From a virus: a stretch of DNA of 64,000 nt. Position 1 is the first letter of the stretch, and the number at the start of each line of letters is the position of its first letter. This document shows, in pieces, positions 11,340 to 62,116 of the stretch. Both the position numbers and the translations under genes were made by a program. Under the pieces are notes generated by a model. That model saw only the letters and a list, made by a program, of their open reading frames with translations. It was not told the DNA's origin and did not search any database. The stretch lies in IMG/VR virus record IMGVR_UViG_3300031759_000010, one strand, 5' to 3'.

Positions 11340-11560
11340 AGGCTTGATTTTGTCCAGCGTTAGTGCGAAGATTGTTCTGCGGGGTGATTGTTTCACTCCT
11401 TCCCATATGACTCCTTGAGCAGAATCACATGGTCACCCCGCTCATCCCCCAAAAAAGCACAAAAAGAGCCCCCAGGTTGACATCCTCCCCTCCCTGAAGG
11501 AAGGGGATTCCTACGAGGGCGGCTTACGCCGCTCTTTCGGAGGGTTCCTGCTGCTGACGG
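11340..11560 (-). ncRNA. Candidate TnpB omega (right-end) RNA scaffold
   Basis: In this family the guide RNA overlaps the tnpB 3' end and right end. Here there is a 9-bp hairpin at 11486-11507 and a 9-bp long-range helix (11379-11387 with 11433-11441). Extent and guide are unknown. Confidence 0.3.
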
Positions 11561-12711
11561 CTTACATCGCCGTTCACTTCACAGGCTAACCGGGCGTGTC
11601 CCGCCCTTAGTACGTTGATTGCGCCGACTAGATCAGCGTTCTCCGCAAAGCCACATTCGACGCAAGCAAATTCTGCCTGTGTCTTGCGGTTTTCTCCTGA
11701 GACATGGCCACAATGTGGGCACGTCCGGGAAGTGTTCTGCGGTGGCACGGCCAGGAATAGGCCGCCCACCCAGAGCATTTTGTACTCCAGTTGCCGCCGG
11801 AATTCCGCCCAGCCCTGGTCGAGTATCGACCTGTTGAGACCGGCTTTGGCGCGGACGTTCCTGCCGGGTTGTTCGACAGTGCCAGCAGCAGACCGGGACA
11901 TATTGCTTACCTGCAAGTCTTCGACGACGACCATCGCGTGGTTTTTGCTGATGGTGGTAGAGGCTTTGTGCAGGTAGTCCCGACGGGCGTTGGCAATGCG
12001 AACATGGATGCGCTGGACTTGGGCTTTGGCCTTCTTCCAGTTGTTGCTGAACTTCTTCTTGCGGCTCATGGTCTGCTGCGCTTTACGCAGATCAGCAGCG
12101 TACCGCTTGAAGATGTTGAGAGGCGGATAGACGGTTCCATCCGAGAGCGTGGCAAAGCGCACAATCCCCATGTCGATGCCCACGGCAGCGCCCTGGGCGA
12201 CCGGCTGCTCGATTTCGCGCACGGTCTGAATAGAGATGAACCACTTGCCGTTGCTTGCGCTTACAGTGACATTTCTGACGGTGCCCAGCACCTCGCGGCT
12301 ATTGCGATACCGAACCCATCCGAGCTTGGGCAGGAAGATACGGTCGTTAGCCTGGTCCAGCTTGAAGCCTTGCGGGAAACGGAAACTATCTCCGAGCCCA
12401 CGCTTCTTGAATCGCGGGTATTCGGTTCGCTTCTCAAAGAAGTTGATGAAGGCGCGATCCAGGTTCTTGAGCGAGTGCTGCAGGGCTTGCGAAGGAGATT
12501 CCTTGAGCCACTCAAACTCGCTTTTCCATGCTGGAAGCAGGTTAGCCATCTCCACATAGCTGATGAACTTGTTTCCCGTTTCATGGTTGGCTGTTTGCAA
12601 CGCCAAGGCCTTGTTGAACACAAATCTGCATGACCCGGCAAAGCGGCGCATATCGCGCTCCTGATTACCGTCTGGCATGAGTTCAAACTTGAAAGCCTGA
12701 AGCCGTTGCAT
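11524..12711 (-). CDS. tnpB: TnpB (IS605 OrfB-type RNA-guided nuclease)
   Basis: N-terminus QAFKFELMPD, RuvC-like segments and the C-terminal zinc ribbon CPHCGH...CVECG. The ORF extends to 12879, but ATG 12711 gives the family-typical N-terminus. Confidence 0.9.
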   Translation of the reverse strand: MQRLQAFKFELMPDGNQERDMRRFAGSCRFVFNKALALQTANHETGNKFISYVEMANLLPAWKSEFEWLKESPSQALQHSLKNLDRAFINFFEKRTEYPRFKKRGLGDSFRFPQGFKLDQANDRIFLPKLGWVRYRNSREVLGTVRNVTVSASNGKWFISIQTVREIEQPVAQGAAVGIDMGIVRFATLSDGTVYPPLNIFKRYAADLRKAQQTMSRKKKFSNNWKKAKAQVQRIHVRIANARRDYLHKASTTISKNHAMVVVEDLQVSNMSRSAAGTVEQPGRNVRAKAGLNRSILDQGWAEFRRQLEYKMLWVGGLFLAVPPQNTSRTCPHCGHVSGENRKTQAEFACVECGFAENADLVGAINVLRAGHARLACEVNGDVSRQQQEPSERAA

Positions 12712-12733
12712 GACTTTATTGTATACTTGGTCT

Positions 12734-13156
12734 ATGCAGGGAAGCAATGATATTCGACATGGACGGCATTGTGTATTCAATATGCACGTACACTTGGTCT
12801 TTGTCACGAAATACCGGCGCGAAGTCTTCACCAAAGAGGTGCTTGACGATCTGCGAAGCATCTTTTCCGGTGTCTGCAACGACTTTGAAGCGGAACTGGT
12901 GGAATTCGATGGCGAAGACGACCATGTACACCTGCTCGTGAACTACCCCCCAAAGGTGGCTGTATCCAACCTCGTGAACAGTCTGAAAGGGGTGTCAAGC
13001 CGCATGATTCGCCAAAAGATGTACCCAAGCATCCGAAAGAAGCTATGGGGTGGGGCATTGTGGTCGCCAAGCTACTTCGCTGGCAGTTGCGGAGGCGCAC
13101 CCATCTCCGTCATTCGCCAGTACATAGAGCAACAACAGATAAACCCCGGAGGCTGA
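12734..13156 (+). CDS. tnpA: IS200/IS605 TnpA (Y1 HUH transposase)
   Basis: HCVFNMHVHLVFVTKYRR, HUH motif DHVHLLV, and SPSYFAGSCGGAPISVIRQYIEQQ with the catalytic Tyr region. Confidence 0.9.
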   Translation: MQGSNDIRHGRHCVFNMHVHLVFVTKYRREVFTKEVLDDLRSIFSGVCNDFEAELVEFDGEDDHVHLLVNYPPKVAVSNLVNSLKGVSSRMIRQKMYPSIRKKLWGGALWSPSYFAGSCGGAPISVIRQYIEQQQINPGG

Positions 13157-13284: not shown

Positions 13285-13503
13285 TTACCGGCGAACCCAT
13301 GGGCACCTCAACCTCAAGCTGCGATGCAGGTATCTCCCGGGAGACTCTGCCTGTTCAAGTTCGTTGGCGTCCCGCGGAGTGGCTCCGGTATAAAATCCGC
13401 TTTCGCCGGAGTAAAAGGTGACATGAAGCTCACCCCGCTCCTCGTCGTACTCGGCTGAGGACACGTTGGTGCTTTCGGAAATATCCAGTTTTCTCAAGGC
13501 CAT
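13285..13503 (-). CDS. KTSC-domain small protein
   Basis: VSSAEYDEERGELHVTF..G..Y.Y.G...DANELEQAESPGRYL matches the KTSC pattern. TGATG coupling to the upstream gene. The stop abuts the presumed IS left end. Confidence 0.6.
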   Translation of the reverse strand: MALRKLDISESTNVSSAEYDEERGELHVTFYSGESGFYTGATPRDANELEQAESPGRYLHRSLRLRCPWVRR

Positions 13504-14708
13504 CACTTCTTCTCCCGGGTCTTCACAATCGACCCTTCAATTTCAACCCGGACACCAGGGTAAAGGTCTCCCTCGCTCCCCTTCGCCTTCGCCGCCGCAT
13601 CCAAAACCGACTTGACCGGCGCAACACATGCCGATGTCGGGTATCCGGTGGTGGCTTTTACCTGAATCCCCTCTGCGATATCCAAAATCAAGGACTCAAT
13701 GTCGTCCACTACGGCAACAAACTTTTTCTTGACGCCAATGCCGCCGGTCTTCGGAGGGAGGATGTCAACATGATCGGCGAAAACCGGCACCGGCATGGCC
13801 ACAATCCCCGTATCGGCCATGATCTCCGCCGCTCTCTCGGGGTCTTCGGAGGCCAATTGAGCCCTCAAGGCCTCGGTCTGCCTCTCTTGCTCCGCCTTGG
13901 CCGCAAACCGGGCCGCTTCGAGGTTCTGCTGCCTCTCTATGGCTGCCAGGCGCTCCGCCTCAGCACGGAAGCGGTAAATCGCTTTACCTAGCCTCGCAGT
14001 TGCCTCGTCGATTGGGTTGAGAATCCTGTTTTCGTCGTCTTTGTAAGCCTTCCATGTTTCGTAGTGCGAACGGGTAACCGGCTGAATCTCTCCGGCGATG
14101 GCGCTGTAGAGATCTTTGCCTTTTTTGAACTCCTCCTCTGCCGCGACCAAGGTGTCGCTGTCCAGAATCAGCAGACCGTCGGCGCTGTTGATATAGCTCA
14201 GGGCCAGGTCGCAGAGTTGCTCGATTCTCTCCGCCGGAATGAACATCGCGGAGGTGGTTTGAGGCATTGGCTCCGCTTTTGCCAGAGCCACGCCAACCAC
14301 CGGCCTTTCGGGGGCAACCTCGCCCTCCTCGGGGACATCCCACTCCGACATATCCTGCTTCTTGAATTCCGCCTCAATGGTCGCAATTACATCATCAAAT
14401 GGAGACACAATCAACCCCTTAAAATCGTCGCTGGTAATGTAGGTTTCATCGATAGAATCGCCAAGGGGAGGAATCTCTCCGAGGGAAAGGTGATTCTTGC
14501 GGACAACAGTGTTGTAGAACCTCCCGGCGCTGGAGGCGTGTTTGAAGTCGTACCACGTTTTATATTGAACCCCGGCGTAGCCATAGGTGCGCTTCTCGGG
14601 GTCTTTTTTGCTTCCGTGGAGGGTGACGCTCAACTGACCCGCCTGGGGATCGTAGTCGGCGCGATCAATCAGCTCCGACGCAAACTTGTACACCTCGACC
14701 GACAACAT
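13503..14708 (-). CDS. Hypothetical protein with KTSC-like N-terminus and central coiled coil
   Basis: ATG 14708 is preceded by GGAG. N-terminus YDPQAGQLSVTLH...YGYAGVQYKTWYDFKHASSAGRFYN. Lies in the recombination neighbourhood. Confidence 0.6.
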   Translation of the reverse strand: MLSVEVYKFASELIDRADYDPQAGQLSVTLHGSKKDPEKRTYGYAGVQYKTWYDFKHASSAGRFYNTVVRKNHLSLGEIPPLGDSIDETYITSDDFKGLIVSPFDDVIATIEAEFKKQDMSEWDVPEEGEVAPERPVVGVALAKAEPMPQTTSAMFIPAERIEQLCDLALSYINSADGLLILDSDTLVAAEEEFKKGKDLYSAIAGEIQPVTRSHYETWKAYKDDENRILNPIDEATARLGKAIYRFRAEAERLAAIERQQNLEAARFAAKAEQERQTEALRAQLASEDPERAAEIMADTGIVAMPVPVFADHVDILPPKTGGIGVKKKFVAVVDDIESLILDIAEGIQVKATTGYPTSACVAPVKSVLDAAAKAKGSEGDLYPGVRVEIEGSIVKTREKK

Positions 14709-14714
14709 AAGCAC

Positions 14715-14726
14715 TCCGTATACGGA
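14715..14726 (-). promoter_or_regulatory. Perfect 12-bp palindrome TCCGTATACGGA immediately after a TAG stop (copy 1 of 3)
   Basis: The identical 15-mer TAGTCCGTATACGGA (minus strand) also occurs at 32320-32334 and 58738-58752. Confidence 0.7.
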
Positions 14727-15371
14727 CTATTGCTTCACAATTTCTTCTCGTATGTTCTGCCCGAGATCCATGCGCGTGTACGCTACACCGAGAGCGAAGA
14801 TGAACCTCTGTGCGTCCTGAAAGTCGCGATGGACAATAGTCTTCGCCTTTCCCCTGGAATCAACATGGCAAACCACGCGCGTATACCTGCCAGGCGTGGG
14901 GCTCCCGGTCAGAGCAATTTCCTGCGCCGCCAGTTGTATGCCCGCCGTCTTGGGGGGCGCACATGTGAACTTCAGCTCCACGATTGTCTTCCGGCCGCCC
15001 ATCATCCCCACCCTGTCAATAGTACACGCGAACGCCATTCCGTACACGGAAGAAATCAGCGGCAGCTCTACGCTCTCCGGGACGAAGTTCTCTCTCTCTT
15101 TCCATTCCTTGTATCCTCCAAAACGAATCAACTCATCCTCCGGAGCCCATGGTGGAGGGAGTTCGCCCTCGGCATCATACTGCTCGGTGAGGAAGTGCGC
15201 GTTTCCGCCGCGCCGCGCCGCGTTCTCAACAACGGACGGGTTTATGTTGTCAAAATGCGAATACCGCACCAAGGAGATGATTTGGGTTACCGATGGAACC
15301 CAAACACCCGCATCAGTGCGGTACTCATGATTGCCGTCGTCGAAGGTGCCGCCCTGAATCTTCCTGATCAC
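14727..15371 (-). CDS. PD-(D/E)XK (Cas4/RecB-like) exonuclease
   Basis: GNHEY N-terminal motif and IDRVG...x13...VELKF (D...ExK). GTG 15371 forms a GTGA overlap with the upstream stop. Confidence 0.7.
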   Translation of the reverse strand: MIRKIQGGTFDDGNHEYRTDAGVWVPSVTQIISLVRYSHFDNINPSVVENAARRGGNAHFLTEQYDAEGELPPPWAPEDELIRFGGYKEWKERENFVPESVELPLISSVYGMAFACTIDRVGMMGGRKTIVELKFTCAPPKTAGIQLAAQEIALTGSPTPGRYTRVVCHVDSRGKAKTIVHRDFQDAQRFIFALGVAYTRMDLGQNIREEIVKQ

Positions 15372-19230: not shown

Positions 19231-19306
19231 TGGTAAATGAAATGGGATTTGAACCCACTACCCTTCGCTTATTATGCAAATGCTCTACCGAGTGAGCTAT
19301 TCATTC
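19231..19306 (-). tRNA. tRNA, 76 nt, encoded CCA, anticodon AAU (Ile by canonical numbering)
   Basis: Hand-folded cloverleaf: acceptor GAATGAA/TTCATTT, D-arm GCTC-ACTCGGTA-GAGC, anticodon arm TTTGC-ATAATAA-GCGAA, T-arm GTGGG-TTCAAAT-CCCAT, then A-CCA. Confidence 0.85.
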
Positions 19307-23400: not shown

Positions 23401-24953
23401 TCGGACTTCAAGAGGCTGCCATTCAGACCGGCAAACTTACGCGGCGTCTTGGGCAGGTTCACAAAGGCATCCCCACCCGGTTTCACGGCATCGCGGATCT
23501 GATCGAGGGTTTTGCCAAGCATTTCCGGAGAAGACTGAACATTCAAGACGTTTGAGGCGTACACATGGTCGTACTTCCGGCTCAGGGCGTCAAAATCATG
23601 AAAACCAGGCCTTGCATTGGAGCCAAAATCGTGCGCCGTGACATTAAGGCCCCTCCCTCTTAGATCGCGGGCGTGACCGGCATCCACTCCGGCACCAAAA
23701 TCAAGAATCGACTCCCCGGGACGAGCGATAGAGGCCACATGCCTCGGCACAACAGCGTTTTTCCCAACCGCGCCAGAGGAGCGAGAGGTTTTGTTCGCAA
23801 CAGACACATCCTCGGGGCTGAATTGGGGCTGAGGGGCCATCTTGGTATCAACCTTCCCCTCTATAGGTGCCACCGGAGCCTCAGATTTGACCTCTGTGGC
23901 CTCCGTGGAGGCTTTGGCTGGCGACATATCCTTCTTGAGGTGAGAGCCGCTTAAAAAGGCAAAAAGAGCATCCACGCTGGAGGTTGTAACCTCCTCGGAG
24001 AAGCTGATCGCATCACCCTTCTTTGCGGCTTTGACTGCCTTCTGGAACCCCTCGGCGGCCGACTTCGCCATGCTGTAGGTAAAACCAAGGTCCACCATCA
24101 TCCTGACCAGGCGGAATGGGGCCATTACCGTCATCAGGCCAATAAGGGCGAGATTCTCTGGATTGCTCAGGCCATCAGCAACCTGACGCCCGCCCGCCTC
24201 AACCCCGCGAACCATGTTGACCACCGACCAGCCGCGATCTTTGATCTCGTCAATCTTCTTCTGGTCGTTCGCGTTGTAGACGTTGATCAGGTCACGCAGC
24301 GGGCTGCTGGTCATCGCCTTATATTTCTCGGCCTCGGCCTCCGGTACACCCTTGCTGATCAGGTACTTCTTGTTTTCTTCTGGCGTGAGTTCCGGACCGG
24401 CGTACTTTTCCAACCCCTTCACCAGCTTCGGCAGAAGCGGCTCCGACATGGCGGGAAAAGTCGCGTTCTCTATAGTCTTGACGTCCGGTGCCGGGGCCCC
24501 GCGCAGCTTCATCTGCCGCTGGTGCTCCGACTCCTCGGTGGTGATTCCGGTTGGAGTCGGAGACTTCCAGTGAATCTGACCCTTGTGCTTGGCGATAGCC
24601 GCAGCAATATGCTCATCCGGCATCTCGTCCGGAAACTTCCAGGGAGACAGAATGTTGGACATGTGGAGCTGGCGCTGGTGCTCCGACTCCTCGGTGGTGA
24701 TTCCGGTTGGAGTCGGAGACTTCCAGTGAATCTGAGCGGCGCGGCTCTTGGCAATCTTCGGAGACAGAATGTTGGGCATGTGGAGCTGGCGCTGGTGCTC
24801 CGACTCCTCGGTGGTGATTCCGGTTGGAGTCGGAGACTTCCAGTGAATCTGACCCTTGTGCTTGGCGATAGCCGCAGCAATATGCTCATCCGGCATCTCG
24901 TCCGGAAACTTGACCACGCCCAACCCGTCCACCTTGACCAGCTTGTCGCTCAT
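20436..24953 (-). CDS. Polyvalent giant virion-type protein: N-terminal triple repeat + SAM-methyltransferase + GHKL (HATPase_c-like) ATPase + HExxH metallopeptidase-like region
   Basis: Motif I ILDFGAGVD (nt ~23680). GHKL motifs ELVQNAMDAV, VKDTGKGM and SGGFGLAKAA (nt ~22950-23200). HEILH (nt ~21950). Confidence 0.8.
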   Translation of the reverse strand: MSDKLVKVDGLGVVKFPDEMPDEHIAAAIAKHKGQIHWKSPTPTGITTEESEHQRQLHMPNILSPKIAKSRAAQIHWKSPTPTGITTEESEHQRQLHMSNILSPWKFPDEMPDEHIAAAIAKHKGQIHWKSPTPTGITTEESEHQRQMKLRGAPAPDVKTIENATFPAMSEPLLPKLVKGLEKYAGPELTPEENKKYLISKGVPEAEAEKYKAMTSSPLRDLINVYNANDQKKIDEIKDRGWSVVNMVRGVEAGGRQVADGLSNPENLALIGLMTVMAPFRLVRMMVDLGFTYSMAKSAAEGFQKAVKAAKKGDAISFSEEVTTSSVDALFAFLSGSHLKKDMSPAKASTEATEVKSEAPVAPIEGKVDTKMAPQPQFSPEDVSVANKTSRSSGAVGKNAVVPRHVASIARPGESILDFGAGVDAGHARDLRGRGLNVTAHDFGSNARPGFHDFDALSRKYDHVYASNVLNVQSSPEMLGKTLDQIRDAVKPGGDAFVNLPKTPRKFAGLNGSLLKSELEKRFGRVDKIGGTADAPMFKVSDPQDGSGVQEARSSEGKLKLGADPAALGKLLGSSLYGSNSSMVITKELVQNAMDAVRGESGDKNVTVSVDDYEHTIQVKDTGKGMTKNELETVFTDLGSSGKRDDVTASGGFGLAKAAPLMMSKSIKVTTVVNEGGSLYRHTFEATPEDLLGGGVDIHTEKLSTPEPTGTSVLCKLPDNAYMYGAYEYLGSSRLSLRPPATIKVISNGHEVGPEEAKQLPSAPDSTEHYQGADMDLYISKVKGDKAFDRWNKLNVEVHNNGIYQFMMYMDVPEGVRGLPSRVAIDVHATVPEGNPDYPFLLNRESLRDEASSDIKKLIQERVIDPVVQGHRNTVAGIYNSLPTFKGRKDIPLFDSGQRFTLEEMKEISANAQVIKIASKIQSLARGAIDMLKGSEIHGTGSGIDRIGIVFSDKVHGVYIPNPADTSKATIFIDPFNQIGENPYQAASSVWHTIKHEILHDTYKGHNQSFTTGEVRIARSLGEMEVKALNELRKIYADPNDSTRIREDLSGPLQIYRESRGRSESSPDIFGGEELRSEMAHARGQQGGDGGVHPGGEVPVPGFHQNLIYRSADLDQPFFNKIYVDPNTAGPKEVAAAKKELEEISEQLKKMAPPETPDAQFGTDKWLKRHQDWMRANLPLVLKRDMAVKKYLDLDGRGLGEVRKSSDGTKIVFLSRKGLRALNTTFDGKENLDYESRGCSISPDAYKHYFNQAKIMNPPEELNKLLRIGQNYDGGAIVSFLPRGEKIHSVLAVLREELNHKWQESLVKIRMNLGLLSVYGMKEMDKSIPKPLELYLETNGYPDKSDMSENGVEQRVFEATAKLMSDKPSEFGLTVDEATAYLLKFFQQVYREYGVQGFQKLTHTTNAVRRLKEGFIDEARKPKPDWASLRKTDPGVVGRVRSAGAQWNKKGSSGPGDGTAALKVGGSVKGFVNSNESFELLDSTLLTDADKAKLDELREKLRSFQ
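24518..24909. repeat. Three in-frame coding repeats at the 5' end of the 1505-aa gene
   Basis: A 60-nt core (GCTGGTGCTCCGACTCC...CAGTGAATCTGA) occurs at 24518, 24674 and 24791. A second ~59-nt module occurs at 24578 and 24851. Together they encode IHWKSPTPTGITTEESEHQRQ repeats. Confidence 0.9.
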
Positions 24954-31704: not shown

Positions 31705-32319
31705 CTAGGTTTGCAGCATCCATTGTGTCAAACGAATCTCAAAATCCTCTCGGGAAAGAGTGGAGATAACACCTCCCACCAAGCCATCTCCTCGGGCAAT
31801 CATCTTGGGAACTGTCGCCAGATCCCTGAAGCCAAACCGTTTCAGGTAGTTGGCGGACAGATGATTGTCTTCGTAGCGCTGTGCGTGGATATAGAGCAGG
31901 TTCATCTCATTGAAGAGGTGAGAAATTCCGAGCCAGGTCATAATCTCCTGGTCTTCTGTCCCCCACGTCCACCGAATGAAACCGTAGGCCCCAAAAGCGG
32001 AGCGCTCCTTGCCGCCCATCACGGATACCGTCCAAACCATCCCGCCGGTTCTGAAGACGTCCCCCTCCCACTTGCCCATAATCACCATGGGCTGCATGGC
32101 TAGATAGGTAGTTATCGCGTCGAAGGATAGATCTTTCACGCCGCAAAACATGGCCTGGAGGTTTTCCCGGCGATAAACAGAGCGCCTGCCACCGGCCAAG
32201 GCAAAATAGAGGTTGCCGAGGAATCCGTCTGGAAAGATGGGATTATTGCGGTCGTACCGGATCGCCTGCCAATCACCAATCCGGTAGTTCTCTTTCTTTA
32301 GTTCGTCGAAGATGGACAT
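31705..32319 (-). CDS. Hypothetical protein, possibly GNAT-fold acyltransferase
   Basis: 204-aa ORF. The C-terminal NYLKRFGFRDLATVP resembles the GNAT beta-strand/helix end. The assignment is weak. Confidence 0.45.
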   Translation of the reverse strand: MSIFDELKKENYRIGDWQAIRYDRNNPIFPDGFLGNLYFALAGGRRSVYRRENLQAMFCGVKDLSFDAITTYLAMQPMVIMGKWEGDVFRTGGMVWTVSVMGGKERSAFGAYGFIRWTWGTEDQEIMTWLGISHLFNEMNLLYIHAQRYEDNHLSANYLKRFGFRDLATVPKMIARGDGLVGGVISTLSREDFEIRLTQWMLQT

Positions 32320-32331
32320 TCCGTATACGGA
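32320..32331 (-). promoter_or_regulatory. Palindrome TCCGTATACGGA after a TAG stop (copy 2 of 3)
   Basis: Flanked directly by the TAG stop (32332-32334) and the ATG of the next gene (32317-32319). Confidence 0.7.
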
Positions 32332-32595
32332 CTACTGTGGACGCCCGGGGATGGCGATATTCGATGGGCCGGAAAGTTCGCGCACCGCGTGGTTCAGAGT
32401 CGCCACAACGTTCATCAGCAGAACCGTCCTCTGGTCAGCGATGGCCAGCTCACGCTTGCCGATGGCATCGGTAACCACATCATCAAGAAACAGCTTGATC
32501 TGGTTGACAGCCCGGGCGATCTGGGCAACAGATGCCCCTGGCTCCAGAGTGATGGACGGAAGAGTATTACCGACAGGCATCGTTACAAGCGACAC
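32332..32595 (-). CDS. Hypothetical small protein
   Basis: ORF 32332..32709. GTG 32595 is preceded by AGGAGGAAAT and avoids overlap with the upstream gene. Confidence 0.5.
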   Translation of the reverse strand: MSLVTMPVGNTLPSITLEPGASVAQIARAVNQIKLFLDDVVTDAIGKRELAIADQRTVLLMNVVATLNHAVRELSGPSNIAIPGRPQ

Positions 32596-36600: not shown

Positions 36601-37966
36601 TCGTTGCCGAAGTAAATGGAATGGTGAATGTGTTCGATGTCGGTGTGGCGGCAACCTGATAAAAACCATCCACTAAATCGCTGGAGGAGGCATAAATTCC
36701 AATCATGCTTCCAGCAGATAATCCGTGGGCGGTTGTCGTGGTGACAAGGAGTTGCGTATACAGCCCCCCCACCAAGGTCTGCGCTGTAACGGTGGAGATG
36801 GGAACATTGATCGTGGTGTTGGTGTTAAGAATTGACACCATGCCGTTCTGAACAGGACCAAATGCTCCGGGGTTGGAAACGGTGATTACGGCCCCGGTGA
36901 TTGAGGCGCTGCACGAGATGATGTTGTAGCTGAACGCTGTCGCTTGACACGTTACATTCAAATACACCGTATTGATGTTTGCCACGGAAAACGTCGCAGC
37001 CCCTCCGGCAGACACGACATTTCCGGTTATCGTATTCGAGTAGCTGTTCAAGGGTATCCATGTGACCCCAGAGTCCAGGCTATACTCATACGTCGCCGTA
37101 GCGTTGCCGTTGGCGTTGCTGGAAAATGAGAAGCTTACGCTTCCAAACACCTGCACGGTGACGGTCTGTCCAGACACCGGAACCAGAGAAGGAAAACCAT
37201 AAACATTTGCTCCCGCCTGCGGGCCCACGCTCCCGGGAACGCTTATCGAAACAGAAGAAATGTTCGTCGATGATGTTGGGGTATACTGAGAGCCTCCTCC
37301 GCCAGCCGGAGATATCTGCGAAAACTGACTGAAATCCGTAACCATAGAACCGGACGATGCGTTAAGGGTTTCAATGTTCGACCACCCCCACCCGGTCACG
37401 CTTGCTGATACGCTGTACGGGTTTGATATATTCGCAAACGAGTCGATCATCGACAGAAGCGGCGCATACGGAATAGAGTTCACCGTATACGGAGACATGT
37501 CGATGCCTGTCAACTGTGAAGCTGAAAGGCTGCCGTTGTCTTTGATTGAAACGCTCTGGTCGTAGATGAACAGGTATGGCTGGCTGGTCTCAAAACAGGC
37601 AGTAATCAGGGAATCGAATGGCTTTCCAGACATCCCTGAGTAAATAGACGTGTAGCTTCCCTGAGAGTTTCCGGAGATGCGGTAAAGACTCCCGTCAGAT
37701 GTCCCCGCATACCGCCACGCGCTGCCTTGATAGGTCAGCCGGGCAAGCGATGTCACAGGGTATGAGAAGTAGTAGTTGTTGGCGGTGACGGCGTTGCGAT
37801 TGATCACAAGCGTACCGTACCGCGAGGACATGGACGTCTCTTCGCGAACCTGACAGTTCAGGGTCGTCAGATATGTGTACTCGGGAGCGCGGTCCGTGAT
37901 ATCCCGCGCAATCAAACCCTTCGATGAATAAAGGTACGATACCGGCCGGTAGGCTGTGTCTGTCAT
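33638..37966 (-). CDS. Giant tail/baseplate structural protein
   Basis: 1442-aa ORF with Ser/Thr/Gly-rich beta-type sequence. Lies in the tail module and is coupled at both ends. Confidence 0.75.
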   Translation of the reverse strand: MTDTAYRPVSYLYSSKGLIARDITDRAPEYTYLTTLNCQVREETSMSSRYGTLVINRNAVTANNYYFSYPVTSLARLTYQGSAWRYAGTSDGSLYRISGNSQGSYTSIYSGMSGKPFDSLITACFETSQPYLFIYDQSVSIKDNGSLSASQLTGIDMSPYTVNSIPYAPLLSMIDSFANISNPYSVSASVTGWGWSNIETLNASSGSMVTDFSQFSQISPAGGGGSQYTPTSSTNISSVSISVPGSVGPQAGANVYGFPSLVPVSGQTVTVQVFGSVSFSFSSNANGNATATYEYSLDSGVTWIPLNSYSNTITGNVVSAGGAATFSVANINTVYLNVTCQATAFSYNIISCSASITGAVITVSNPGAFGPVQNGMVSILNTNTTINVPISTVTAQTLVGGLYTQLLVTTTTAHGLSAGSMIGIYASSSDLVDGFYQVAATPTSNTFTIPFTSATIIGATGGYVTGGASSPYACALSNQYTTPYPSQMTAWGFYQWVPVGSTVSAAITSYSVSAGNVVSFVTASNSFVSGQVVLIAGLSTTIGLQMNGLLFTVASTGSTFTASNSSFTPGAVGSTSDSGTASSTLNSFPIGAWSGTVAASSGSTPTTGTISRTVALDLNQNNQVTDDDLIVLTLLTSAPINVSQIQLQFWVGASNLGNPVNYYTKFISPAYYQQAVAETQLAYSATEQQILADSLNLVTGQPPGSISAQIQPSNISSGAGSWSACYMRRGDFLPVGQAGQPGLNWSNVTGWTLGVTTNTNTGGVTFSVNGLYLQWGYGLSSFAGVGYDYRQTYYNANTGTESSPCPEQTFNEDFGYLASTDPLTVLRQAVRVTGQYSSDPQVTHVRNYRRGGVLSQDWVQVGQIPNITGGGQYVFKDVISDSYVGQAQILVEDNDPPVTSSLVNPIQTTLALSTTQAGLNSAYSTFSPQAVTVNGVYSGLVVNQIVIVGNPSNLEEVAITQVGGTTSTTTTFYAILRLKHNQGEPVNVYAVPRQPCNLCALAYNRVWLAGDKNNPGYLYFSKPGQPENFGPENYLNVSTPSDPINAVINWRGTLFVGTLTTWYVIQGGANPIAQPTGSQHGIVAQQGWTQTEGAIWYRAADGLREFKGSEGAYMSLPVEWVYRNNPLTPLPLADNSQAANDVMCYYNNEVYVSYISLSGLRYRLIYDTVYKRFRNDSLPMTAMLWERDTNTFLGSYLISAGNYAIVQDQVYSMDYDDGGWYSGYLLKNPINIAIQMPYQDLGKPHYPKQWNVIETDVNTQGQVMTTSLTFDDGSVTVPLATASTTSRQKVQLEVNAGLGQQGYRMSLTHTMPVTVAPILYQENVYAAELAAFRYTFDTYWILGGTELNKLVKQCVFDYTSALAVTFGLYADGSTVPYYTFTLPAEPGRATVRVRFPAIKLRDFRMVGNIASGSTGFQMWQSPQLWWKACLESVGYKQADLTT

Positions 37967-58114: not shown

Positions 58115-58363
58115 GTGGAATCAAAAAAGTTTTTCAGTCCAGAAGATGCTGTTCTTATGATTCGGTCCAGGATGGGAGCAAGAAGCTCGTCGGCCTATGC
58201 CAGGGCCATGGGGGTTTCCCGCCAATTCATGTCCGATGTCTTGACAGGAAACCGTGGCCCCTCAAAAGAAATGCTTGCCTCGATTGGTTTGGAGCGGGTA
58301 ATCATGTACCGCCGCCTTCGCTACTCGGGGAAGCCTGCATCCCAATCTGACCCCGACGACTGA
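58115..58363 (+). CDS. XRE/Cro-type HTH regulator
   Basis: SAYARAMGVSRQFMSDVLTGNRGPSKEML. Divergent from the Phd-like gene. Confidence 0.6.
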   Translation: MESKKFFSPEDAVLMIRSRMGARSSSAYARAMGVSRQFMSDVLTGNRGPSKEMLASIGLERVIMYRRLRYSGKPASQSDPDD

Positions 58364-58722
58364 GGGTCGTCTTGAGCATCCTTGGGTTTGTTGCCGAGAA
58401 GCACCAGCTCGAACGCCATAATCTCCGTCCGGTACTTTTTCTCGCCCGTATTCTTGTCGTTCCAGCTCTGGGTGCGGAGCTTCCCCTCGATGTAAATCTT
58501 GTCGCCCTTGTGGACATAATCCCTGATCACTTCGGCCGTCTTCGAGAAGGTCACGATGTTGTGCCACTCGGTCCTGTCTGTCCAGTTACCACCAGAATCC
58601 TTTTCGCGCTCCGTGGTGGCAATAGAAAAGTTGGCAACAACCGTACCCCCGGGAGTTACCTTGACGTCTGGATCCTTGCCCACATGGCCAAGAATCTGCA
58701 CCTTGTTCACTGTCTTGCTCAT
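58321..58722 (-). CDS. ssb: Single-stranded DNA-binding protein
   Basis: NKVQILGHVGKDPDVK...TEWHNIV.F...A......KGDKIYIEGKLRTQSW is the OB-fold SSB signature, with an acidic C-terminal tail. Confidence 0.9.
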   Translation of the reverse strand: MSKTVNKVQILGHVGKDPDVKVTPGGTVVANFSIATTEREKDSGGNWTDRTEWHNIVTFSKTAEVIRDYVHKGDKIYIEGKLRTQSWNDKNTGEKKYRTEIMAFELVLLGNKPKDAQDDPQSSGSDWDAGFPE

Positions 58723-58737
58723 TCTTCCTCCTGTTTG

Positions 58738-58749
58738 TCCGTATACGGA
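58738..58749 (-). promoter_or_regulatory. Palindrome TCCGTATACGGA after a TAG stop (copy 3 of 3)
   Basis: Follows the TAG at 58750-58752. The SSB ATG lies 27 nt downstream, in frame. Confidence 0.7.
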
Positions 58750-59295
58750 CTACTGTCCGTTTTGTAAAATGCTCATCACTGTCTTCTGCATTACAGCAGA
58801 GAGTTCCAGTGGATTGAAGGTTGTAAGGGTTTCCACGCGTCCGCTTCCACCATGATCCATAAACCTGAAGACAATGACATCCTTGACGGCATCCATGTTC
58901 TCCATGGCCTTAATCATTAACCCCGTCAGGCTTCTGTCGCTCTTCAGCTCGGTCAACACTTCGTCTCCCTCTGCTGGCTTGGCATCCTCCTCCTCCTGGG
59001 CGTTCAGTAAGCCTTGGAGTATATCGCCGTGATTCGAAGACCCAATACACCCCGCAGGACAGGCCATAGAAAACTCCACGGGAACCCCACAAAAAAACAA
59101 TCTCTTATCCAGCTTGCGAAACGGATGAAGAATGGAAAAGTGAGAGCATGGGAATGGATCAGCTCCCCACTCAATCAGGTATGCAACAAGCTGGGAAGCG
59201 CTGGATGGATGAACCACAAGGCGCTCGATCTCCAGGCCCCGCCTACGCATACTCCAGATGGCATCTTTGAATGATTCAAACCTCATATCAGACAT
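58750..59295 (-). CDS. Hypothetical protein
   Basis: 181-aa ORF in the replication module. Confidence 0.6.
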   Translation of the reverse strand: MSDMRFESFKDAIWSMRRRGLEIERLVVHPSSASQLVAYLIEWGADPFPCSHFSILHPFRKLDKRLFFCGVPVEFSMACPAGCIGSSNHGDILQGLLNAQEEEDAKPAEGDEVLTELKSDRSLTGLMIKAMENMDAVKDVIVFRFMDHGGSGRVETLTTFNPLELSAVMQKTVMSILQNGQ

Positions 59296-61401: not shown

Positions 61402-62116
61402 TCATTCCCCCTTCGATTGGCCGACCAAACTCCCCGGCGGCCCCATTCAACCAACTTGCCGCATACCGGATCCAGGCACTCAACGGATTGCCGTGGGCCA
61501 CAGGACTCCGTGCCCGATTCCGAAGAATTGCCCCCCACTGTTCCAGCGAAACGGTTGGGTTGGACTCCAGCCACACCTTCAAATCTTTTGCCTCGCGCCC
61601 GTTCCAAGGAGCGGGGATTCCGTTCCTGCTTTGGTAGTACCCGCAGAAGGCTTCCTTGAAGGGAGAGAACCGGGACGTGACCGCTTCAGCGGAATAGTTC
61701 TTCTTTCCTTCTTTTTCATTCTTATTGTTAGGGTAGCTATTAGCACCCACCCCCTTGCTATTAGCAACCGGGGGGTGGTAGCTATTAGCACCCACCCCCT
61801 TGCCAATAGAGCCGATATTGACCTGAAGGAGGATGTACTGGTTGGAGTCTCGCGCCCCATCCGACTGCCTCACCTCAACGCTTATCAGGAGGTGTTTTTC
61901 GAGATCCTTCAATCCATCAGACACGGTATCCTTCGACACCCCCAAGAGGGAGGCTAGGGTTGATTTGGACGGGAAGCAGGCCTGACTCGTTCCGTTGGCA
62001 AATGCAACCAGCCCCATGTACACGAGGTTGGCCTTCCACCCCAAACCCATTTTCAAGATCGATTTATTGAACCACGCAAAATCCCCATCGCGAAGATCAC
62101 GAATACTGTCAGCCAT
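61250..62116 (-). CDS. Replication initiator-like winged-helix protein
   Basis: ORF 61250..62476. ATG 62116 gives MADSIRDL...FPSKSTLASLLGVSKDTVSDGLKDLEKHLLI (wHTH). Iteron-like repeats lie inside the gene. Confidence 0.6.
   Translation of the reverse strand: MADSIRDLRDGDFAWFNKSILKMGLGWKANLVYMGLVAFANGTSQACFPSKSTLASLLGVSKDTVSDGLKDLEKHLLISVEVRQSDGARDSNQYILLQVNIGSIGKGVGANSYHPPVANSKGVGANSYPNNKNEKEGKKNYSAEAVTSRFSPFKEAFCGYYQSRNGIPAPWNGREAKDLKVWLESNPTVSLEQWGAILRNRARSPVAHGNPLSAWIRYAASWLNGAAGEFGRPIEGGMNGKSGKINHNIQMLRDSLGQDQVCVDGDGVLPPGNDTRELSAALLESSIE
61732..61803. repeat. Iteron-like direct repeats (27-nt, 2 copies, plus a partial third)
   Basis: GGTAGCTATTAGCACCCACCCCCTTGC occurs at 61732-61758 and 61777-61803. 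GCTATTAGCA also occurs at 61757-61766. An embedded inverted repeat is CCACCCCC/GGGGGTGG. Confidence 0.6.

Follow-up and report, generated by a model that had tools for sequence, protein, structure and literature searches.

A palindromic element found at the junctions of genes in an uncultured freshwater phage, a candidate binding site for a dimeric DNA-binding protein

Dispersed short sites in other phages and in plasmids

The stoperators of mycobacteriophage L5 and further members of Cluster A are 13-bp sites of the gp71 repressor, which are found in short gaps between co-transcribed genes and away from promoters. Their effect is on transcription that runs across them; they are asymmetric, point in the direction of transcription and number ~24–30 or more per genome of a temperate phage. 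The sites described here differ in being symmetric and in counting four copies, and neither a repressor nor an integrase was identified in this phage. Stoperators were contrasted with two further types of mycobacteriophage repeat, the start-associated sequences (SAS) and the Cluster O repeats, in PMC3203893 and PMC4351075.

The Cluster O mycobacteriophages carry 17-bp dyad repeats, TGTTCGGNNNCCGAACA, of unknown function, for which a dimeric DNA-binding protein was predicted by the authors (PMC4351075). These repeats and the present element have in common invariant inverted arms, a dispersed distribution over short intergenic gaps and coding sequence, and no link to promoters. Moreover, Cluster O phages also encode ParB-like domain proteins (PMC4351075), as does the present phage, and their half-site, TGTTCGG, resembles TGTCCGT here. 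In contrast, they belong to other phage and host lineages, space their arms as 7-3-7 rather than 7-2-7 and possess more than 30 copies per genome, against four perfect and three near copies here (about ten times lower); the absorption of a stop codon at three copies is a trait of the present phage.

The SAS of Cluster K mycobacteriophages, GGGATAGGAGCCC, is likewise of unknown function (PMC3203893). As here, it is a short conserved motif that fills the gap between stop and start, often with the upstream stop within it, and it is kept across related phages before non-orthologous genes. However, it is asymmetric, used in one orientation, includes a Shine-Dalgarno core, lies 3–7 bp from the start and is present in 11–19 copies before non-structural genes only, whereas the element studied here is a perfect palindrome, found 0–16 nt from starts at junctions, with one perfect copy (S0) and the coding copies far from starts.

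A further comparison is provided by the sites of ParB-family proteins, namely chromosomal parS, Noc-binding sites, the KorB operators of plasmid RK2 (as outlined in PMC11790492) and the SopB sites, of which prophage-plasmid N15 has four single palindromes, IR1–4 (PMC7205306). Shared features are a length of 14–18 bp, perfect or near-perfect palindromy, few copies, invariance among copies and relatives, the intragenic position of some copies, and a ParB-family helix-turn-helix (HTH) protein with CTP-binding boxes in the same genome. The architecture of parS (16 bp, 7-2-7, outer TGT...ACA) is matched here, but the sequence is not that of any parS, Noc-binding site or KorB operator characterised so far. 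Furthermore, ParB–parS partition systems have a ParA partner, and none was found in ~83 kb of this phage, for which binding is predicted. Plasmid-type partition is not an obvious need of the phage, because it looks virulent.

The palindrome and its copies

The analysis was based on a window of 64,000 nt from an uncultured freshwater phage, together with sister contigs, including L016, which extended the coverage to ~83 kb of a genome of 90 kb or more. The original prediction had reported the 15-mer TAGTCCGTATACGGA in three minus-strand copies (14715–14729, 32320–32334 and 58738–58752), each with a TAG that terminates the upstream ORF after a Gln codon, a 12-nt palindrome that begins on the very next base, and a downstream ATG 18, 12 or 27 nt past the TAG, in the same frame and with no intervening stop. 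All this was borne out, with CAA, CAG and CAG, respectively, as the Gln codons, and the recurrence proved non-random, as matches in shuffled sequences averaged 0.01 and the observed three were not reached in any of 100 shuffles. The additional copies of the 10-mer CCGTATACGG at 488–497 and 37483–37492 were also confirmed, and its tally of five exact and two one-mismatch copies compares with 0.86 expected. The stretch common to the second and third copies is 19 nt (ACAGTAG...) rather than 18, and the census, correct for the copies that it listed, had missed a one-mismatch copy at 15039–15050 and a fourth perfect copy, S0, outside the window.

The core of the site, TCCGTATACGGA, is the sole non-coding 12-mer with at least three repeats and the sole recurring 12-bp palindrome. 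The ideal form is the 18-bp perfect palindrome TTGTCCGTATACGGACAA, with the half-site consensus (T/C)(A/T)(G/T)TCCGTA, and the length of the perfect palindrome varies from 12 to 18 bp among the copies. Overall, four perfect and three near-perfect copies were found in ~83 kb, with the perfect sites, S0–S3, spaced approximately evenly at distances of 18–26 kb.

At S1 (14715–14729, minus strand), the TAG (14727–14729) is the stop of a Cas4-like/PD-(D/E)xK exonuclease gene (14727–15371, minus strand; 214 aa in other gene calls) and is followed by the perfect palindrome TCCGTATACGGA at 14715–14726. Downstream is a 403-aa protein (13503–14714, minus strand), which has a KTSC domain at its N-terminus as well as an exonuclease-like region and starts at either GTG (14712–14714) or ATG (14706–14708). 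The originally reported spacing of 18 nt holds for the ATG; the alternative GTG immediately adjoins the palindrome, at 12 nt past the TAG. A 73-aa stand-alone KTSC-domain protein, a candidate binder, is encoded at 13285–13506 (minus strand).

At S2 (32320–32334, minus strand), the TAG terminates the gene of an 87-aa protein (32332–32595, minus strand) and precedes a perfect palindrome, which is abutted by the ATG (32317–32319) of a 204-aa gene (31705–32319, minus strand) that has no usable Shine-Dalgarno sequence. Both proteins are of unknown function, and the label "GNAT-like" originally given to the latter found no support in Pfam or PHROGs. S3 (58735–58752, minus strand) reads TAGTCCGTATACGGACAA and matches the ideal 18-bp palindrome at 17 of 18 positions. 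Its TAG is the stop of a 181-aa ORFan (58750–59295, minus strand), for which homologues were not found, and it is followed downstream by AGGAGGA and then by the ATG of the ssb gene (58321–58722, minus strand), which encodes the single-strand binding protein SSB. Gene calls on sister contigs independently agree on the 87-aa/204-aa and 181-aa/SSB pairs. Finally, S0 (19434–19451 of L016, ~7 kb beyond the window) is the 18-bp perfect palindrome TTGTCCGTATACGGACAA itself; it has no stop codon, differs in frame and is separated by ~215 nt from the next clear gene start downstream. Three of the four perfect copies wholly occupy gene junctions, and intergenic DNA amounts to ~5% in one 8.6-kb stretch by gene-call coordinates.

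The three near copies lie within genes. That at 15039–15050 (minus strand) is read as TCC GTG TAC GGA inside the Cas4-like gene and encodes a conserved S-V-Y-G; that at 37482–37493 (minus strand), TCCGTATACGGT, matches 11 of 12 positions inside a 1442-aa gene and has an extra half-site, TCCGTAT, 21 nt downstream; and that at 487–498, GCCGTATACGGG, retains a perfect 10-bp core inside a small plus-strand gene.

Further genomic features include a permuted tmRNA (RF04321, 89 bits), 26 tRNAs that adjoin the window (27 phage tRNAs overall) and a replication initiator gene with its own iteron-like direct repeats at 61732–61809. The phage also encodes a resolvase. No integrase was seen and, with 26 tRNAs beside the window, the phage appears virulent.

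Motif-bearing relatives and the stop codon

A search of GenBank phage nucleotide sequences returned zero matches, protein-seeded IMG/VR scans with the 181-aa, Cas4-like and ParB-like proteins retrieved no relatives, and a Cas4 profile scan of metagenome data found nothing. IMG/VR scans with a 14-mer yielded mostly single hits, which were screened for extra copies and for homology to window proteins without revealing a relative, and seven IMG/VR matches to the 15-mer, often with an ATG after it, were attributed to chance according to their ORF contexts. The motif-bearing relatives are known from contigs of only 4–12 kb.

In one of these relatives (L020, 61% Cas4 identity), the Cas4/KTSC junction is a plain GTGA overlap without the palindrome or a fusion, so that the related-phage comparison proposed originally does not favour the fusion reading. 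Instead, one 12-mer (site B) is found 3 nt after a TAA and out of frame, upstream of a different KTSC gene, the orthologue of the 73-aa protein, which it directly precedes, and a second copy is located within Cas4, as the codons of the conserved SVYG. In a second relative (L187), the Cas4 and KTSC genes overlap by 4 nt according to the called coordinates. The Cas4 position homologous to 15039–15050 is a perfect palindrome in both. The motif is therefore conserved, with a position that is mobile between relatives. The seven perfect copies in the three phages display no covariation, though the proteins are only 44–62% identical. More distant relatives, at 38% identity in Cas4 (L306–L309) or 35–47% in terminase (L021–L023), have neither a copy nor any other recurrent palindrome.

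The coding copy in the Cas4 gene appears to be constrained at the DNA level. Given the codon usage of the phage, the chance of SVYG being spelled exactly as the palindrome is 0.003. Among five homologues, the position is perfect in two and one base off in another two, and this four-codon run has the top synonymous-codon identity of the gene (0.625 vs 0.388).

These data bear on the programmed readthrough initially proposed, in which a stop-adjacent hairpin would promote suppression of the TAG to yield X-SVYG-linked fusion proteins. Its basis is that all three window sites consist of a TAG, a palindrome from the next base on and an in-frame ORF without an intervening stop, with upstream genes ending in Gln; a stop codon, an in-frame ORF after it and a nearby hairpin are indeed what known readthrough signals have. 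However, the constant TAG and frame hold for S1–S3 and fail at S0, which has no stop and another frame, and at site B of L020, with its out-of-frame TAA. The palindrome also occurs inside coding sequence, as in the Cas4 gene of the relatives, and at the orthologous Cas4/KTSC junctions the stop and the start overlap. The Cas4 homologues found, 20 in number, all span 201–233 aa, which shows that no fused form is among them. For this phage TAG is an everyday stop codon, used by 13 of 40 large ORFs, including those of terminase, portal and helicase, and none of the 27 phage tRNAs is a CUA (amber) suppressor. The stop-adjacent hairpins have little stability (–3.9 to –7.3 kcal/mol), begin with the base right after the stop and are lost in folds of longer contexts. 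The first base after a stop sits inside the mRNA channel of the ribosome, and a hairpin starting at that base would consequently be melted while the ribosome is on the stop; known stimulators of readthrough are found ~8 nt downstream. Besides, U follows each TAG here, and U after the stop is a strong termination context in bacteria. The sites thus lack what defines readthrough signals: a leaky context, a stable structure at the proper spacing, a frame kept in relatives and fused homologues. As to the frame, a stop and a start that both abut a 12-nt element are automatically in frame, as in S2, and in S1 if the GTG is used, so that only S3 represents an independent coincidence, with a chance of ~1/3. 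The shared frame is weak evidence and largely arithmetic, and we consider programmed readthrough highly improbable.

An RNA-processing site was another of the early suggestions; one for RNase III is at odds with junction stems of 4–5 bp, as there is no double-stranded RNA of ~20 bp. Rfam contained no family match at the sites. The alternative listed last in the original prediction, a protein-binding palindrome, fits the evidence best, and binding would explain the element as set out below.

Candidate binding proteins and competing explanations

We propose, with middling confidence, that the copies form a small set of palindromes of invariant sequence, which serve in double-stranded DNA as sites for a dimeric sequence-specific protein and are either operator-like or parS-like. 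The anatomy, the sequence conservation, and the independence from stop codon and frame are established, while we infer from them that a protein binds, which protein this is and what follows from its binding, which might be silencing or a roadblock, genome organisation or partition. Since the genes are tightly packed, new copies would be tolerated mainly at junctions, where the palindrome itself would serve as the spacer. The upstream stop would be absorbed into a palindrome arm, because TAG alone among the stops keeps the conserved G beside TCCGTA and is one base from the ideal arm TTG; that TAG is the one-base variant of TTG is suggested by S0, a perfect 18-bp copy with no stop and another frame. 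An abutting start codon would then fall in frame by the arithmetic of the 12-nt core. Most likely, TAG and the shared frame are side effects of wedging the site between genes. As a precedent for such a site, the same 18-bp palindrome is present upstream of two Xre-antitoxin operons, like a typical HTH operator.

The most likely binder, as predicted from the gene content, is the ParB/Noc-type HTH protein of the phage. It comprises 272 aa and is encoded on a sister contig outside the window (14847–15665 of L016), 3.8 kb downstream of the best site, S0, within a co-oriented gene run. Its domains are ParB_N and HTH_ParB, and both the GxRRxRA box (as GHRRWRA) and the ENxxR box are present; its best relatives of solved structure in the PDB are Myxococcus ParB, Spo0J and Noc, and its best plasmid matches by identity are from Sphingomonas. 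With ParB as the binder, the sites would be loading sites similar to parS or the KorB operators. ParA was sought among the called genes of L016, L025 and L189 and the scanned proteins (~83 kb of a genome of at least 90 kb), and no ParA-type Pfam match was obtained. This binder fails to account for the junction preference, as ParB sites may equally well lie in genes. Second among the candidates are the KTSC-domain proteins. KTSC is described as DNA-binding in one paper (PMC9503650), and no literature was found on PDB entry 7X8C, a KTSC structure. The binder may also be a host rather than a phage protein, given that Hyphomicrobiales genomes contain conserved pairs of this 12-mer.

Accordingly, the palindrome TCCGTATACGGA could be a co-opted transcription-factor box of a probably alphaproteobacterial host, coupling the expression of ssb, the recombination module and further genes to a signal of the host, which we view as a rather unlikely but real possibility. 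The exact 12-mer occurs in pairs, mostly at a distance of 66 bp, within an intergenic region that is conserved and which in two contigs (L195 and L317) lies between nrdJ and a 23-aa Lys/Ala-rich ORF. Such pairs were found in ten Alphaproteobacteria MAGs, six of them with Hyphomicrobiales names (Aestuariivirga, Rhizobiales, Rhodobiaceae), and in six metagenome contigs. The best plasmid matches of the ParB-like protein by identity, from Sphingomonas, agree with such a host, as does the permuted tmRNA, a type that occurs in Alphaproteobacteria, some Betaproteobacteria and Cyanobacteria. Relatives with 38% Cas4 identity and no motif are likewise expected if their hosts differ. Nevertheless, a literature search found no operator with this sequence, the cellular sites are paired while the phage sites are single, and the same 12-mer is found in unrelated contexts, namely tandem repeats, the neighbourhood of a transposase fragment and toxin–antitoxin operators; identity over the 12-mer alone is therefore weak evidence.

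Control at the RNA level appears less probable still. In a translational operator, the hairpin UCCG-UAUA-CGGA would be bound in the mRNA by a phage protein, e.g. of the KTSC type, which would occlude the ribosome-binding site or start, or modulate termination–reinitiation. All four junction copies, including site B of L020, are 0–16 nt upstream of a start codon, which fits translational control too and to that extent speaks against the binding model. The 3' arm of S1 provides the GGAG of a Shine-Dalgarno sequence. At S2, with its ATG abutting the hairpin and no Shine-Dalgarno sequence, translation is probably coupled to termination at the stop 12 nt upstream. Moreover, KTSC genes are found directly downstream of S1 and site B of L020, and the hairpin is longer in S0 and S3 and stable in S0 (–13.6 kcal/mol). 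However, the best copy, S0, has no clear start codon close by, the Cas4 coding copies are ~315 nt from the next start and the 487–498 site is in an opposite-strand gene. The stems show strict sequence identity without compensatory changes, and the junction hairpins, with the energies given above, are absent from the minimum-energy folds of their 71-nt contexts, the z-scores of which are 0.0, 0.4 and –2.0. KTSC, for its part, is called DNA-binding in PMC9503650. We regard a translational operator as unlikely.

A phage-specific promoter or activator core, with TATAC(G) as a –10-like element and transcripts starting ~7 nt downstream, is improbable to a greater degree, and the same applies to its prediction of short-leader mRNAs at S3 and site B of L020 and nearly leaderless ones at S1 and S2. 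A start ~7 nt past TATACG would fall just before the Shine-Dalgarno sequence at S3 and site B, and at or near the ATG at S1, and TTTACA is found 17 nt upstream of TATACG at S3. On the other hand, a conserved –35 element is absent at S1 and S2, TATACG does not have the invariant final T, and neither a phage RNA polymerase nor a sigma factor was found among the scanned or Pfam-annotated proteins of the genome part examined. In addition, the coding copies and S0 misfit the geometry, and a promoter class in a genome of 90 kb or more would need to have more than four members. The promoter scan found nothing, with no sigma-70-like promoter beside any site, so the overlap of operator and promoter of the classical kind is not seen either.

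Several other types of element were considered and rejected. No terminator-like site was found at any copy, GTATAC is not depleted as a restriction or methylation site might be (19 copies vs ~12 expected), and no HNH gene stands beside any site as a homing endonuclease would suggest. Origin iterons were discarded because the replication initiator gene has direct repeats of its own, and an IS200/IS605 end hairpin because the TnpA/TnpB element (11.5–13.2 kb) is at least 1.4 kb from the nearest copy. A site for a small serine recombinase (res/hix) was dropped, as 18 bp is presumably too short for crossover and the half-site differs from what we take to be the consensus, TGTCYNNTA. We also dropped a MerR-type operator, for which we assume the form TCCGTAC-N4-GTACGGA, with a similar half-site but the wrong spacing.

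Returning to the proposed duplex DNA sites, a more specific and tentative version, to which we assign a minor share of probability, is that they load a ParB/Noc-type CTP-dependent clamp of a tRNA-rich, apparently virulent phage, which would spread to organise or silence the genome. Alternatively, as a variant held at the same low level, they would be boxes of an undescribed alphaproteobacterial regulon, represented by the paired boxes by nrdJ, into which the phage plugs its ssb and recombination genes.

For sequence scans, the present case serves as a caution that an apparent "stop + hairpin + in-frame start" can arise from a 12-nt palindromic operator between packed genes. The paired boxes of Hyphomicrobiales point to an undescribed cellular regulatory site of the same sequence, which could help in host assignment. 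If confirmed as a binding site, the element would provide a defined protein–DNA pair in a phage lineage of which hardly any genes are annotated, as well as a compact case for studying the role of the ParB-like proteins that are common in lytic phages.

The repeated palindrome and the adjoining TAG

The 15-mer TAGTCCGTATACGGA was found in three exact copies in the window, all on the minus strand (S1, 14715-14729; S2, 32320-32334; S3, 58738-58752), compared with 0.01 matches expected from shuffles, which bears out the recurrence noted in the original prediction; S2 and S3 share 19 nt, rather than the 18 nt given there. The 10-bp core CCGTATACGG was present in five exact and two one-mismatch copies, versus 0.86 expected. 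Within the window, the palindrome was the sole recurring 12-bp palindrome and, one coding tandem repeat aside, the sole 12-mer with at least three copies. As originally described, at all three sites an ORF with glutamine as its last codon closes on TAG, the palindrome starts on the very next base, and an ATG follows the TAG after 18 (S1), 12 (S2) or 27 nt (S3), in the same frame and without an intervening stop. Independent gene calls on contigs of the same phage were concordant for S2 (87 aa followed by 204 aa) and S3 (181 aa followed by SSB), and the label "GNAT-like" for the 204-aa protein found no support. At S1, the downstream 403-aa ORF has an alternative GTG start abutting the palindrome. 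Of note, S3 carries an additional half-site, ACGGAC, 4 nt upstream of the TAG (58749-58768), which can pair with GTCCGT (ACGGAC-AGUA-GUCCGU) to form an alternative hairpin that rivals the palindrome hairpin in the RNA fold.

A fourth copy, S0 (TTGTCCGTATACGGACAA), lies outside the window on the sister contig L016 (about -7.3 kb on the window's coordinate scale) and is a perfect 18-bp palindrome. It has no preceding stop codon, its frame differs (..S-C-P-Y-T-D-N..), provided that the surrounding 78-aa ORF is real, and the next clear gene, encoding a DUF932 protein, begins approximately 215 nt downstream. S3 (TAGTCCGTATACGGACAA) is identical to S0 at 17 of 18 positions, so that the "TAG" is a single-substitution variant (TTG to TAG) of the outer part of the left arm. 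Pooling of all arms gave the half-site (T/C)(A/T)(G/T)TCCGTA, and the stop is always TAG because no other stop codon keeps a G adjoining TCCGTA. Where stop and start both abut the 12-nt core, they are in frame by arithmetic, which applies to S2 and, given the GTG start, also to S1. This leaves S3 as the only independent coincidence of frame, which would arise by chance about one time in three.

Conservation in relatives and the readthrough reading

A profile of the Cas4-like nuclease, whose gene ends at S1, yielded 20 homologues of 201-233 aa. On one contig of a relative, L020, Cas4 is 61% and the KTSC protein 44% identical to those of the window phage. The original prediction had proposed checking whether relatives keep the TAG plus palindrome or fuse the genes: the orthologous Cas4-KTSC junction of L020 is a GTGA stop/start overlap that lacks the palindrome, and 0/20 homologues are fused to the downstream protein. 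L020 has two perfect TCCGTATACGGA copies within 4.2 kb. The intergenic one (site B) reads TAA-TAT-TCCGTATACGGA-AAATCAAGGAGGATTT-ATG ahead of a 72-aa KTSC gene, with a TAA stop that does not abut the palindrome and a stop-to-ATG distance of 34 nt, hence out of frame. The other is within the Cas4 gene and codes for a conserved S-V-Y-G. These four codons spell the perfect palindrome in L020 and in the related contig L187, and are one base off in the window (15039-15050) and in L310, and three bases off in L188. With the phage's own codon usage, the probability of SVYG being spelled exactly as the palindrome is 0.003; synonymous-codon identity across these codons is 0.625 versus a gene mean of 0.388, the top value among the invariant four-residue runs of the gene. 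No copies were found in more distant relatives (38% identity in Cas4; 35-47% in terminase). Among phages with proteins just 44-62% identical, the nucleotide sequence of the palindrome is conserved, and its position, adjacent stop codon and frame are not.

Programmed readthrough of the TAG, which would give fusion proteins, is very improbable. TAG terminates 13 of the 40 large minus-strand ORFs, including those for terminase, portal and helicase, and no CUA anticodon occurs among the 27 phage tRNAs. The stop-adjacent hairpins comprise 4-5 bp with a UAUA loop (-3.9 to -7.3 kcal/mol), are lost in minimum-energy folds of longer contexts, and start at the first base past the stop. A ribosome positioned on a stop codon covers the mRNA there, and known readthrough stimulators lie several nucleotides further downstream. 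An Rfam search at the sites returned no match. The recurrent element is real, but programmed readthrough does not stand as its meaning, given that S0 lacks a stop and L020 site B has an out-of-frame TAA. The repeat itself is confirmed, the readthrough interpretation is not, and the binders considered below are candidates.

The phage and its surroundings

The phage is uncultured, with 55% G+C and mainly minus-strand transcription, and has recognisable genes for terminase, SU10-type portal, DnaB helicase, SSB, Cas4-like exonuclease and several HNH proteins. Near-identical contigs, the longest of 90,480 nt, were present in a set of related metagenome samples (JGI and SRA), and no close relative was found among GenBank phages or IMG/VR. 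Sister contigs widened the view on both sides, L016 adding approximately 9.4 kb on the left and L189 about 9 kb on the right. The left extension contains ParB-like, resolvase, DUF932 and HNH genes. At L016 14847-16755, the ParB/Noc-type gene adjoins that of the resolvase, a small serine recombinase, with the DUF932 gene near, a plasmid-like maintenance set in an otherwise virulent-looking phage; neither ParA nor integrase was seen in the examined sequence (window and sister contigs). At L189 139-8223, directly beyond the window end (64000 corresponding to L189 ~8300), the right extension carries an array of 26 tRNA genes together with a tmRNA of the permuted type (Rfam RF04321, 89 bits; tag AAAFALPVAA) and a possibly ArfB-like protein of 125 aa with an RF-1 domain, an extensive translation gene set by phage standards. 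Permuted tmRNAs occur typically in Alphaproteobacteria and some other groups, and their presence here hints that the host is alphaproteobacterial. A solitary minus-strand tRNA-Ile with the unusual anticodon AAT is distant from the main array (19231-19306). Other features of the window include an IS200/IS605-type element just downstream of the KTSC genes (11524-13156), with a plus-strand TnpA Y1 transposase (12710-13156; Pfam E=2e-46) divergent from a minus-strand TnpB/Cas12f-like OrfB (11524 to ~12651), as well as a 126-nt coding repeat present three times in the gene of a 1505-aa protein (24513-24911) and 6/12/18-nt periodic CCGGCTACGGCT-type repeats at the very start (1-150).

A putative site for a dimeric protein

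Judged from sequence, the palindrome is most likely a binding site for a dimeric protein on double-stranded DNA; a protein-binding palindrome was among the possibilities listed originally. This reading is favoured by a strictly identical sequence that shows no compensatory changes, a dyad symmetry that reaches 18 bp, copies within coding sequence and in genes on both strands, and absence of both a terminator and an RNA family. No sigma-70-type promoter was found beside any copy, so classical promoter occlusion is not indicated. A translational operator acting in RNA remains a rival, as start codons lie 0-16 nt from the sites, the S1 3' arm contains GGAG and the S2 start lacks a Shine-Dalgarno sequence, but S0, the coding copies and the missing covariation fit it poorly. 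Another remaining rival is a phage-specific promoter in which TATACG would serve as a -10-like element; its geometry suits S3 and L020 site B, but the -35 element is not conserved and no polymerase factor was identified.

For a duplex-DNA site, one candidate binder is a 272-aa ParB/Noc-type protein with ParB_N and HTH_ParB domains and GHRRWRA and ENxxR boxes, whose best-matching solved structures are those of Myxococcus ParB, Spo0J and Noc. Its gene and S0 fall in one run of co-oriented genes, the gene lying 3.8 kb downstream, and the site shares with parS a 7-2-7 architecture and outer TGT...ACA, although its sequence differs. KTSC-domain proteins (73-aa; N-terminus of the 403-aa protein) are further candidates, their genes immediately following S1 and L020 site B; KTSC was described as DNA-binding in one paper (PMC9503650). 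The replication initiator (HTH_36, O-like or DnaD-like) is an unlikely binder because its gene contains 33-nt direct repeats of its own. These two repeats (GGTAGCTATTAGCACCCACCCCCTTGCTATTAG; 61732-61809), 94% identical and 45 nt apart, are probably origin iterons.

A host factor is a further candidate. A metagenome scan for GTCCGTATACGGACAA returned mainly single matches, as by chance, along with contigs in which two copies stand at a constant distance. When genomes were scanned for pairs of copies 40-66 nt apart, 13 loci in 12 MAGs were found; 10 are Alphaproteobacteria, including 6 named members of Hyphomicrobiales (Aestuariivirga, Rhizobiales, Rhodobiaceae). The conserved intergenic module comprises two TCCGTATACGGA boxes, usually 66 bp apart, on either side of an inner dyad (GATTCAGC...GCTGAATC). 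It was found at L317 7049-7126 (Aestuariivirga MAG), at other alphaproteobacterial loci among L312-L322, and in L195, L223, L228, L262, L275 and L303; in L195 and L317 its neighbours are nrdJ on one side and a 23-aa Lys/Ala-rich ORF on the other (MAKKAAKKPAKKAAKKKSAKKKI). The module matched no Rfam family and has the appearance of a regulatory site not yet described. Given these paired boxes in alphaproteobacterial MAGs and the permuted tmRNA, a host regulator with this specificity is a serious rival as the binder. The same 12-mer or 18-mer also occurs in unrelated settings, among them 23-bp iteron-like arrays, G+C-rich tandem repeats and beside a transposase gene fragment, so a common 12-mer is no proof of a common system. 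In two more of these settings, on unrelated metagenome contigs, an exact TTGTCCGTATACGGACAA precedes a hipB(Xre)-hipA (hipBA-like) operon by approximately 30 nt (L204 7412-7429) and an Xre-RES toxin-antitoxin operon by approximately 75 nt (L246 6285-6302), positions typical of autoregulatory operators. Separately, an unrelated 166-kb viral contig from IMG/VR (L112; 66% G+C) has at 1886-1939, just past a terminator-like hairpin, two 20-bp palindromes in tandem, ACGTTCCGTATACGGAACGT and GCGTTCCGTATACGGAACGC, which share this core and are 29 bp apart.

The sites are closer in character to the dyad repeats of Cluster O, the stoperators of L5, KorB operators or parS than to lambda-type operators. 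The closest described elements are the 17-bp Cluster O repeats (PMC4351075), the L5 stoperators, the dispersed ParB-family sites of N15 (PMC7205306) and RK2 (PMC11790492), and the Cluster K SAS, where upstream stop codons likewise fall inside the motif (PMC3203893). On these likenesses, the palindrome is an addition to the general kind of element represented by Cluster O repeats, SAS, stoperators and ParB sites, in an unstudied phage lineage.
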